This document shows, one piece after another, positions 15,001-18,000 of a DNA stretch of 49,096 bases. Where the stretch lies: the IMG/VR virus record IMGVR_UViG_2541047773_000006; one strand, given 5' to 3'. Numbering within the stretch: the stretch's first letter is position 1; each line of letters begins with the position of its first letter. Source of the DNA: a virus. Taxonomy: Duplodnaviria; Heunggongvirae; Uroviricota; Caudoviricetes. The position numbers were made by a program.

Positions 15001-18000
15001 ACGAACAGTACCCAGAGTGGGCGTTGATTACATGCCGACGTCGTGTTGATCAGTGGTTGCGTGTTGTTGAGTTCATTTTGTATTCACCTATGAGAGAAGC
15101 GTTCGATTATGCTTAAAAAATCATTGCAAAATGAGCCACAAACTGCTTCAATTTCGGTACGCTTCGCATAGCTGTATCGCGAGGCAAATTAAGCGCATGA
15201 ACTTTAATACAACCCGCCATTGAGCGGGTTTTGTTGTTTCTGTGGCGTGATATCAGAAACGACATTTAATAATCGCCTTCAAAATAAATTTGTTTATACA
15301 TTGTCATGTATATTTTAAGTGAAAGTGAATTATTCACATAAAATAAAAACATATAAATAAATTTACATAACTTGACGCAAAGTGTTGTTGCGATTGGAAT
15401 ATTAAATCGTATCATCGAAAACGGTTCTGAGGGGGAACTCTTCTTTGCTCGGTGATATCGCTCCCCTGAAGAACCAATGCCGACTTAGCTCAGTAGGTAG
15501 AGCAACTGACTTGTAATCAGTAGGTCACCAGTTCGATTCCGGTAGTCGGCACCATATGCGGGTATCGTATAATGGCTATTACCTCAGCCTTCCAAGCTGA
15601 TGATGCGGGTTCGATTCCCGCTACCCGCTCCAGCATTTGAAACAAGCCTTATTGTATTGCGGCACTGGCGTATTTTTTTATTACGTGGGAGCAGGTTGTT
15701 TTGAAAAAGCATTCTGTTCTCTGGCTATGATTTGAGGCCGGGTGTAGCCTCAGTGCTGATTTTTTACGGCAGCAGAATGGTGCATTATCGGTGGAGATTT
15801 TGTATTTCCTGGCAGGGTCGGTGATGCATCATTCTGGTGTTGTAAAAGCACCGCAGAGGCGTTCCTCAGGGCGAGGGTGGTTTAAAGAGTCGGTTTAGCG
15901 GGAAACCACAGTATCCATACGGCACGGAATACTTCGGGAGGCACCCGACGCCTCGGTTTTATAACAATTAAATAATTCATCCCTTAATTGACCAACCGCC
16001 GTATCAGGCGGTTTTTTTTATTCTTAATTCGAAAAAAGAAAACACGGACACTGATAATGTCCGTACGGCAATGCCATGTAAGTCAGTGATGAATATGGCG
16101 CAAAAAAAGCGCGGCTGTCGGATTAACGCCGCGGGACAAAGTCCGTGAAGAAGAATAAGTATCGGTCTCCTTCCGGAGACGAGTTGATATTACTAAGCTT
16201 TAAAAATGGTTTAAATCCTCAGATTAACCTTAATTTCAGATAAGGTTTATTTCATTTTCTCCGCGTCACATCCGACGCACATCACATCAGATAACACCAC
16301 ACAAAAGGCATCTGCGGGTGTCTTTGACGGGGTGTTTTTTACGGGCCGCTGGTGGCCATTTTTTGTTTCCATTACACAGCGCCCGCATCTGCGAGGTGGG
16401 GGTTATGAAATCCATGGATAAGTTAACAACGGGTGTCGCCTATGGCACCTCCGCAGGCAGTGCTGGCTACTGGTTTTTACAGTTGCTCGATAGAGTAACT
16501 CCGTCACAGTGGGCTGCAATCGGTGTGCTGGGTAGCTTGGTATTTGGCCTGCTGACGTACCTGACAAACCTTTATTTCAAGATTAAAGAAGATAAGCGCA
16601 AGGCTGCGAGAGGTGAATAATGCCTCCATCATTACGAAAAGCCGTTGCTGCTGCTATTGGTGGCGGAGCAATTGCTATAGCATCAGTGTTAATCACTGGC
16701 CCAAGTGGTAACGATGGTCTGGAAGGTGTCAGCTACATACCATACAAAGATATTGTTGGTGTATGGACTGTATGTCACGGGCATACAGGAAAAGACATCA
16801 TGCTCGGTAAAACGTATACCAAAGCAGAATGCAAAGCCCTCCTGAATAAAGACCTTGCCACGGTCGCCAGACAAATTAACCCGTACATAAAAGTTGATAT
16901 ACCGGAAACAACGCGCGGCGCTCTTTACTCGTTCGTTTACAACGTGGGCGCTGGCAATTTCAGAACATCGACGCTTCTTCGCAAAATAAACCAGGGCGAT
17001 ATCAAAGGCGCATGTGATCAGCTACGTCGCTGGACATATGCTGGCGGTAAGCAATGGAAAGGTCTCATGACTCGTCGTGAGATTGAGCGTGAAATCTGTT
17101 TGTGGGGTCAGCAATGAACAGAGTAACCGCGATTATCTCCGCTCTGGTTATCTGCATCATCGTCTGCCTGTCATGGGCTGTTAATCATTACCGTGATAAT
17201 GCCATTACCTACAAAGCGCAACGCGATAATGTGAAGGAAAAACTCAACCAGGCGACCGCAATCATTACTGACATGCAGATACGCCAGCGTGATGTTGCTG
17301 CACTCGATGCAAAATACCTGAAGGAGTTAGCTGATGCGAAAGCTGAAAATGATGCTCTGCGTGATGATGTTGCCGCTGGTCGTCGTCGGTTGCACATCAG
17401 AGCAGTCTGTCCGTCCGTGCGTGAAGCCACCATCGCCTCCAGCGTGGATAATGCAGCCTCCCCCAGACTGGCAGACACCGCTGAACGGGATTATTTCACC
17501 CTCCGGGAACGACTGGTAATGATGCAGGCCCAACTTGAAGGTGCTCAGCAATACATAACCGAACAGTGTTTAAAGTAAAATCTTAACTACAATATGATTC
17601 ATTTTGATGATTGTTTCATAAGGAACAGTGAAGTAAGATCTAAGATGAGTTAAATTTTATACAGTATAATCATAATGTTGCAGCAAGGTGGTTATAATTG
17701 AAAGAATATTTAGATATGAATACATCTCATATAAGAGTTGTTACTCATATGTGTGGGTTCCTGGTTTGGCTCTATAGTCTTTCAATGTTGCCACCAATGG
17801 TTGTAGCATTGTTTTATAAAGAAAAAAGCCTGTTCGTTTTCTTTATAACTTTTGTTATATTTTTTTGCATTGGTGGCGGAGCGTGGTATACAACTAAGAA
17901 ATCTGGTATTCAATTACGTACTCGTGATGGGTTTATTATAATTGTAATGTTTTGGATTTTGTTTTCTGTTATTAGTGCATTCCCTTTATGGATTGACTCA

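Follow-up and report, generated by a model that had tools for sequence, protein, structure and literature searches.

A tRNA-Thr(UGU)/tRNA-Gly(UCC) pair in the late leader of a Rac-like Escherichia coli prophage, probably a generic supplement of minor host tRNAs

The tRNA gene pair and its host counterparts

The stretch of DNA analysed here (hereafter the window) is the 49,096-nucleotide IMG/VR virus record IMGVR_UViG_2541047773_000006, which corresponds, except for one base, to a stretch of the Escherichia coli chromosome NZ_OZ040973.1 and covers a full-length Rac-like lambdoid prophage that adjoins ttcA. ARAGORN found exactly two tRNA genes in the window, both on the plus strand, and these are the subject of this study: a gene for tRNA-Thr(UGU) at 15479..15554 and a gene for tRNA-Gly(UCC) at 15558..15632, each with an encoded CCA end. 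The two genes are joined by a 3-nt spacer, TAT (15555..15557, plus strand), which is the fusion junction in a flank listing of 12 copies. The Rfam family RF00005, whose gathering score is 29, matched the Thr gene with 73.8 bits (E=2e-14) and the Gly gene with 65.6 bits (E=4e-12). Thus, with RF00005 scores above the curated threshold and ARAGORN calls, both qualify as bacterial elongator tRNA genes, and the pair that the initial annotation had read at 15479-15632 was recovered by both searches.

The Thr gene is identical at 76/76 positions to thrU of E. coli K-12 and to thrU of this strain. An A-C mismatch in its T stem had raised doubts about its function. The mismatch (A52·C62) is real, but it is also found in K-12 thrU and in the thrU of this strain; because the prophage and host sequences agree throughout, A52·C62 is the normal state of the host tRNA and not a defect. 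The acceptor stem of the Gly gene differs from that of host glyT, as had also been proposed, with GCGGGTA/TACCCGC in the prophage versus GCGGGCA/TGCCCGC in the host. The 2 differences pair with each other and amount to one fully compensated change, from C6:G67 to U6:A67 (gene positions 6 and 66), and the two Gly genes are otherwise identical. The same U6:A67 variant is also found in the phages JLK-2012, 683R6 and SerU-LTIIb.

The identity positions of threonyl-tRNA synthetase (ThrRS) are G1:C72, C2:G71, G35 and U36, and those of glycyl-tRNA synthetase (GlyRS) are U73, G1:C72, C2:G71, G3:C70, C35 and C36. Because the Thr gene equals thrU and the compensated pair is all that sets the Gly gene apart from glyT, these positions are unchanged: the Thr anticodon and all the ThrRS positions are as in the host, and the 6:67 change of the Gly gene lies outside the GlyRS positions and retains pairing. 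We infer from host identity and conservation that the two intact genes encode functional tRNAs. A pseudogene, or a tRNA of doubtful function, was ruled out by the identity of the Thr gene with host thrU and by the compensation of the sole Gly change, and both genes have high tRNA scores, so that the earlier reservation about functionality can be dropped.

In the host, thrU and glyT are single-copy genes for minor tRNAs, and the prophage pair are phage-borne copies of them. ACA is decoded by the thrU tRNA, which through wobble also decodes ACU/ACG, whereas the glyT tRNA decodes GGA/GGG. In tRNA-dependent lysogeny, a phage tRNA substitutes for a host tRNA gene destroyed by integration (PMC10865867). 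Such a substitution was rejected for the present prophage, given that its integration site is next to ttcA and that the same genome retains intact copies of both host genes at the tufB locus.

The Thr-TAT-Gly cassette in lambdoid phages

In the host, the two genes belong to the thrU-tyrU-glyT-thrT operon upstream of tufB. The prophage pair resembles this operon in sequence (Thr 76/76, Gly 73/75), in gene order and orientation and in the encoded CCA ends, but lacks tyrU, a 116-nt spacer and thrT. Between thrU and glyT the host has tyrU and spacers (209 nt), whereas the prophage has only TAT. Read as T+AT, these bases would be the remainder expected of a clean deletion of tyrU and the spacers from the host operon, although three bases are weak evidence. 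The flanks of the cassette are unrelated to the host operon, and the host promoter was therefore not carried over.

The CCA-TAT-GCGGG junction was also found in phi467 (an Stx2f phage), PhiR47_1, vB_EcoM-606R7, vB_EcoS-683R6, SerU-LTIIb (two copies) and JLK-2012, the exceptions being PhiR47_1, whose spacer is TGT, and four IMG/VR copies with an extra G in the Thr 3' end before the junction. A pattern scan of IMG/VR across the fusion returned four contigs only. Of 5,426 complete E. coli genomes, 172 contain the full 501-bp local context, and ~1,150 further query matches were found in these 5,426 genomes after one host locus per genome had been subtracted. Because the same fusion junction is found throughout the phage copies, the comparison points to a single mobile cassette spreading among lambdoid phages, not to repeated capture from the host. 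The cassette is common, ordinary, already annotated and already known. It is also carried by prophages of E. coli 042 and APEC O1, the tRNA genes are annotated in RefSeq there and in the present genome, as they also are in the public records of the carrier phages, and a paper on Stx2f phages names these tRNA genes as landmarks (PMC5189129).

The cassette lies between Q and the lysis genes in PhiR47_1, 606R7, 683R6 and JLK-2012, and between stxAB and the lysis gene in phi467; the record of SerU-LTIIb is partial and lists no Q gene. In 683R6 the gene order is the same as in the present prophage, namely Q-tRNA-holin-endolysin-spanin-trkG. Homology with several carriers starts no more than about 15 nt 5' of the Thr gene, so that no dedicated promoter travels with the cassette, and stops immediately 3' of the Gly gene. 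Among phages the identity of the tRNA pair is 97-99%, versus 59-87% for the homologous 3' flank, a gap that points to strong constraint, to gene conversion with the host genes, or to both.

The neighbours of the cassette vary among phages and are ileZ-like, divergent Lys, Asn or thrU-derived Arg(UCU) genes. The Gly gene is of the host type (C6:G67) in phi467, PhiR47_1 and 606R7, versus U6:A67 in the window. The Thr(UGU) copy of JLK-2012 (L007, 2995-3070) has 11 changes from thrU: CAG at 40-42 has become CAT and the anticodon stem is cut to 3 bp, while compensating changes preserve the acceptor stem. This copy is no longer called as a tRNA by ARAGORN, and the Gly copy next to it has A38 changed to G. 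SerU-LTIIb has a gene called as tRNA-Arg(UCU) (L014, 1122-1197) that is identical to thrU at 71/76 positions and plainly descends from it. Its anticodon is TCT instead of TGT and the usual TAT-Gly fusion comes next; the anticodon would appear to have been switched inside the cassette. Directly 5' of Thr-Gly in PhiR47_1 (L008, 2927-3003) and 606R7 (L015, 2427-2503) is a tRNA-Lys(UUU) gene with 46/79 identity to host lysT and its anticodon at 35. Because the CAU tRNA that precedes this divergent Lys gene is 76/76 identical to ileZ of phage 933W, these two arrays are mosaics of known and odd tRNAs.

Upstream of the pair in the window is the gene for a Q-type late antiterminator (14580..15116, plus strand, as are all the leader features below), which is annotated in RefSeq and is matched by Pfam DUF1133 (E=4e-102) and Phage_antitermQ (28.2 bits, cutoff 26). 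Terminator scanning located a hairpin with a T-run at 15211..15240, a candidate tR'-type terminator (fold -13.6 kcal/mol, z = -2.65); segment 15146-15242 is common to SerU-LTIIb, and the 15211-15240 hairpin is common to PhiR47_1. Sequence inspection revealed an AT-rich stretch at 15260-15380, and at 15388..15415 the promoter scan gave a weak sigma-70-like match, TTGCGA-16-TATCAT (9/12 matches), as a possible tRNA promoter. The scan gave 5 such matches in the region versus 4.6 expected by chance, and among the carriers compared the upstream segment that holds the candidate promoter (15243-15466) is common only to phage 683R6. No conserved dedicated tRNA promoter was thus found, and for the same reasons the pair would be transcribed mainly within the Q-dependent late transcript.

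A long imperfect inverted repeat, GGTTCTGAGGGGGA...TCCCCTGAAGAACC, at 15423..15475 ends 3 nt before the Thr gene (fold of 15416-15480, -20.4 kcal/mol, z = -2.1). No T-run follows the repeat, which is therefore not a terminator, and the hairpin may be a processing element. On the 3' side of the tRNA genes, the terminator scan gave a moderate terminator-like hairpin at 15732..15763 (fold -12 kcal/mol, z = -1.3) and, between the tRNA genes and the lysis genes, a strong intrinsic-terminator-like hairpin with an eight-T run at 15994..16023 (z = -3.8); an intrinsic terminator directly 3' of the Gly gene was not supported (fold of 15633-15700, z = +0.24). At Rfam gathering thresholds no other RNA families were found in the Q-to-holin region. 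The first late genes downstream are those of the lysis cassette at 16405..17578, with the holin gene essD, the endolysin gene rrrD and a spanin gene (RefSeq; open reading frames checked). The holin gene starts at 16405, and the pair is thus placed between the Q gene and the lysis genes, as are tRNA clusters of the 933W type.

Codon demand and the role of the pair

Codon usage in 54 prophage genes was set against that in annotated host genes, at first 89 and later 125, taken from three 50-kb regions of the same genome. Per 1000 codons, ACA was used 6.6 and then 5.7 times and GGA 7.2 and then 6.9 times in the host genes, versus 15.5 and 15.6 times, respectively, in the whole prophage. The values for ACA and GGA were 18.3 and 14.3 in the early genes, 13.2 and 14.0 in the late plus lysis genes, and 19.3 and 26.9 in the cargo genes. 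Enrichment over the host was supported by Fisher tests with p values of 1e-5 to 1e-16, and relative to the 125 host genes it was 2.7 times for ACA and 2.3 times for GGA. The enrichment presumed in the initial annotation is thus clear. The head and tail-shaft genes had 15.5 ACA and 14.0 GGA per 1000 codons versus 0.9 and 0.0 in rpo, rpl, tuf and similar highly expressed host genes. Because the two codons are rare in highly expressed host genes and common in virion genes, demand for them must jump when late proteins dominate translation, which supports a role of the pair as a codon supplement. When codons were grouped by the tRNA species that reads them, following our own assignment and K-12 gene copy numbers, the absolute excess of the prophage was largest for Lys-UUU, followed by Thr-UGU, Asn-GUU, Gly-UCC, Ile-CAU, Ser-UGA and Arg-UCU, and 6 of these 7 species occur in lambdoid late-leader arrays. 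Per host gene copy, the excess demand was largest for Thr-UGU and second largest for Gly-UCC among 40 tRNA species, which likewise favours a codon supplement.

The late genes of other lambdoid phages use the two codons in a similar manner. Among carriers of the pair, ACA and GGA were used 14.2 and 14.5 times per 1000 codons in the late genes of the window prophage, 10.9 and 13.6 times in those of phi467, and 13.4 and 11.2 times in those of PhiR47_1. Among phages without the pair, the corresponding values were 10.3 and 9.4 in lambda, 11.7 and 12.9 in HK97, and 13.8 and 16.5 in 933W. Carrier-specific codon usage was thus ruled out in this small sample of 3 carriers and 3 non-carriers, and over-use of ACA and GGA is a general lambdoid property, specific neither to carriers nor to cargo.

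The closest parallel is 933W (NC_000924), whose record has ileZ, argN and argO in the same slot, in keeping with the earlier remark on Ile/Arg tRNAs at this position in other lambdoid phages. The order in that record is Q, pR', terminators, a putative tRNA promoter pT, ileZ-argN-argO, a terminator, stx and the lysis genes. The tRNA genes of the window likewise follow Q and a candidate first terminator and precede the lysis genes. In both phages, the tRNAs are tightly spaced and serve A-ending codons that the host seldom employs and the phage over-uses. The two phages differ in that 933W has Ile2 and two Arg isoacceptors, as opposed to Thr-UGU and Gly-UCC here, and is without the Thr/Gly pair despite equal use of ACA and GGA in its late genes. 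The publication of the 933W genome reportedly presented its tRNA genes as novel; the prophage tRNAs, in contrast, are near-exact copies of host genes. A literature search on ileZ/argN/argO and rare codons returned no match.

Phage T4 is the classical case of phage tRNAs for codons that abound in the phage but are scarce in E. coli, and its cluster consists of Arg-UCU, Gln, Gly-UCC, Ile-CAU, Leu-UAA, Pro-UGG, Ser-UGA and Thr-UGU. Both anticodons of the prophage pair are found in this cluster, and 5 of the T4 species are among the seven largest excess demands of the prophage. T4 differs in being virulent, in having tRNA sequences that differ from those of the host and in the genomic setting of its cluster.

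We consider it probable that the pair is a late-operon supplement of the minor host tRNAs for ACA and GGA, generic to lambdoid phages and untuned to CDT or TrkG. Upon induction, Q-modified RNA polymerase would pass the terminators and copy the pair into the late message. The tRNAs, whose CCA ends are encoded, would then be freed by the RNase P and the 3' trimming enzymes of the host and charged by host ThrRS and GlyRS. The added tRNA would ease the shortage that is expected once translation has switched to phage proteins, given that the virion genes contain ~15 per 1000 of each of ACA and GGA, as opposed to about 0-1 per 1000 in highly expressed host genes. Transcription from the late promoter, processing, charging and a fitness benefit are thus predicted steps of this proposal.

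Several observations weigh against the proposal. The ranking of tRNA species by excess demand employed a metric that was picked after the data were seen. The excesses of AGA (6.9 times host usage) and ATA (3.4 times) are larger than those of ACA and GGA, yet no matching tRNA is present here. A consensus scan gave no convincing match to a pR' late promoter. Furthermore, given the equal over-use of ACA and GGA with and without the pair, codon demand is no predictor of carriage, and lambda copes without the pair.

The initial annotation had associated the tRNAs with the AT-rich cargo genes as well as with late genes. In the cargo form, the pair would be expressed in the lysogen from its own promoter and would raise the translation of cdtABC and trkG as an accessory of lysogenic conversion, which we regard as doubtful. 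The codon counts given for cdtA were exact (7 GGA, 5 ACA, 7 AGA and 7 ATA in 236 counted codons), trkG is indeed AT-rich (38% GC), and the density of ACA and GGA is highest in the cargo genes. The promoter-like TTGCGA-16-TATCAT, with its AT-rich upstream stretch, is 64 nt 5' of the Thr gene; a tRNA promoter is annotated in 933W as the putative pT; the strong terminator at 15994-16023 would permit transcription of the tRNAs without turning on lysis; and many close prophage relatives, such as that of APEC O1, have the pair and cdt about 30 kb apart. Promoter-like matches are, however, as frequent as expected by chance, and the upstream segment is not common to cassette carriers other than 683R6. 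Moreover, the cargo genes hold only 28 of the 197 ACA (14%) and 39 of the 198 GGA (20%) codons of the prophage, and cdtABC uses AGA (21) and ATA (20) as much as GGA (23) and ACA (15), while the prophage is without an Arg or Ile tRNA. K-12 Rac has kept trkG but lost the entire Q-tRNA-holin segment, the present cdt cluster occurs in at most 76 genomes versus 172 with the Q-tRNA context (at least 96 of which are therefore without it), and other cassette phages have quite different cargo (stx2f, LT-IIb or none). The codon shares, the AGA/ATA content of cdt, K-12 Rac and the genome counts together ruled out cargo-specific tuning. Thus, the intact genes and the ACA/GGA enrichment sustain the suggestion that the tRNAs boost translation, but the link to cargo does not hold: a codon supplement is plausible but generic, and the earlier reading was right in kind and wrong in target. 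That the pair has no function at all, being a fragment of the thrU-tyrU-glyT operon acquired by illegitimate recombination, would agree with the virtually host-identical tRNA sequences, with a spacer that fits clean loss of tyrU and the spacers, and with the success of lambda and HK97 without any tRNA. Such a neutral hitch-hiker is unlikely in view of the conservation and the compensated change, and we assign it very little probability: a single fusion persists intact across many phages that are otherwise mosaic, nearly always in the Q-to-lysis region; the pair is far better conserved than its flanks; the lone acceptor-stem change is compensated and common to at least four phages; and the extra matches in the 5,426 genomes are numerous.

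The pair might also counter tRNA-cutting immune nucleases by replacing destroyed host tRNA. P2 Old, which is the effector behind P2-lambda interference, is lethal because it cleaves host tRNA-Thr(UGU) where CNG motifs pair within the anticodon stem, and resistant phage tRNA-Thr(UGU) genes rescue cells from P2-OLD (PMC12445682). The targets of AriB of the PARIS system are Lys(UUU), Thr(UGU) and Asn(GUU) (PMC12409363). The anticodon of the prophage Thr gene is thus that of the main P2-OLD target and of a main AriB target, and Lys(UUU) or Asn(GUU) genes are found beside the Thr-Gly pair in related lambdoid arrays, in which the Lys gene of PhiR47_1 and 606R7 is very unlike host lysT (46/79). The Thr copy of JLK-2012, with CAG changed to CAT and a 3-bp anticodon stem, has the kind of change reported for OLD resistance. 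By our own reading of the published rule, glyT also has a paired CAG/CUG at 28-30/40-42 and A37, although Gly is not reported as a substrate. The Thr gene of the window, however, shows 100% identity to host thrU, with the same CUG/CAG stem and UAAUC|A site, and its product should be cut likewise. The phage tRNA-Thr(UGU) that rescue from OLD (PMC12445682) and the T5 tRNAs that rescue from PARIS (PMC12409363) have changed anticodon stems, whereas that of the Thr gene of the window is unchanged, and host tRNA-ThrU expressed from a plasmid gave little to no protection from OLD (PMC12445682). A nuclease-resistant variant was rejected for this copy, as both anticodon arms, that of Gly included, are host-identical, with no changes in the CNG motifs, stems or loops. 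In addition, no gam-type RecBCD inhibitor is annotated and the prophage has recE/recT, which makes triggering of OLD doubtful. An anti-defence role is therefore unlikely for this prophage's copy, although the added Lys(UUU) or Asn(GUU) genes and the JLK-2012 Thr copy make it suggestive for the cassette family at large. A wider version of the idea would make the Thr-Gly cassette part of a lambdoid tRNA toolkit (Thr-UGU, Lys-UUU, Asn-GUU and perhaps Gly-UCC) selected mainly by the Toprim tRNA nucleases of rival P2/P4-type elements (P2 Old and PARIS AriB), with the host-identical copy in the window acting by late-promoter dosage or reset by gene conversion. We consider this highly improbable; if it were true, relatives such as JLK-2012 would hold truly resistant forms. 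Recent work identifies tRNA-Thr(UGU) as the target in P2-lambda interference, which makes the variant Thr and Lys copies of related lambdoid phages worth a look, and it is these, not the copy in the window, that are possible counter-defence candidates.

A generic late supplement of the host tRNAs for ACA and GGA, which we prefer, adds little that is new and fits the textbook view in which phage tRNAs supplement codon supply. Grouped by tRNA species, the codons do match the pair, yet this match is a general lambdoid trait and no adaptation to the CDT or TrkG cargo.

Other features of the prophage

The genes of the prophage are arranged in the order intR, xisR, ralR, recT, recE, kilR, sieB, racR, ydaS, ydaT, ydaU, ydaV, queH, hokD, the Q-type antiterminator gene, the two tRNA genes, the holin, endolysin and spanin genes and trkG, followed by the terminase, head and tail genes and cdtABC. 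On the opposite strand, 3' of cdtABC, are an alpha/beta-hydrolase gene and then ompT, both of which are AT-rich as well as ACA- and GGA-rich. Within this end of the window (44304-49096), the cdt cluster is of mixed types in RefSeq, with cdtA of type I and cdtB and cdtC of type IV. Just outside the window, beyond the ompT end, are the remnants of an integrase gene and of a DUF1627 gene, which suggest a second, decayed element at the cdt/ompT end. Because the side tail-fibre genes (41153-43213) and ynaK (about 19311-19568) are annotated as truncated pseudogenes, complete virions may not be made by this prophage copy.

The nin-like region contains queH, an epoxyqueuosine reductase gene (12169-12834, plus strand; Pfam QueH E=1.8e-65). 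It is a tRNA-modification gene for the final step of queuosine synthesis, the substrates of which are tRNAs with GUN anticodons and not the Thr or Gly tRNA; the usual E. coli enzyme for this last step is QueG. Rfam also identified the RalA antitoxin small RNA (1557-1735, plus strand; 219 bits), which overlaps the ralR region, and the sok antisense RNA (12902-13077, plus strand; 120 bits) beside hokD. RalA/ralR and sok/hokD are two type I toxin-antitoxin systems of the prophage.

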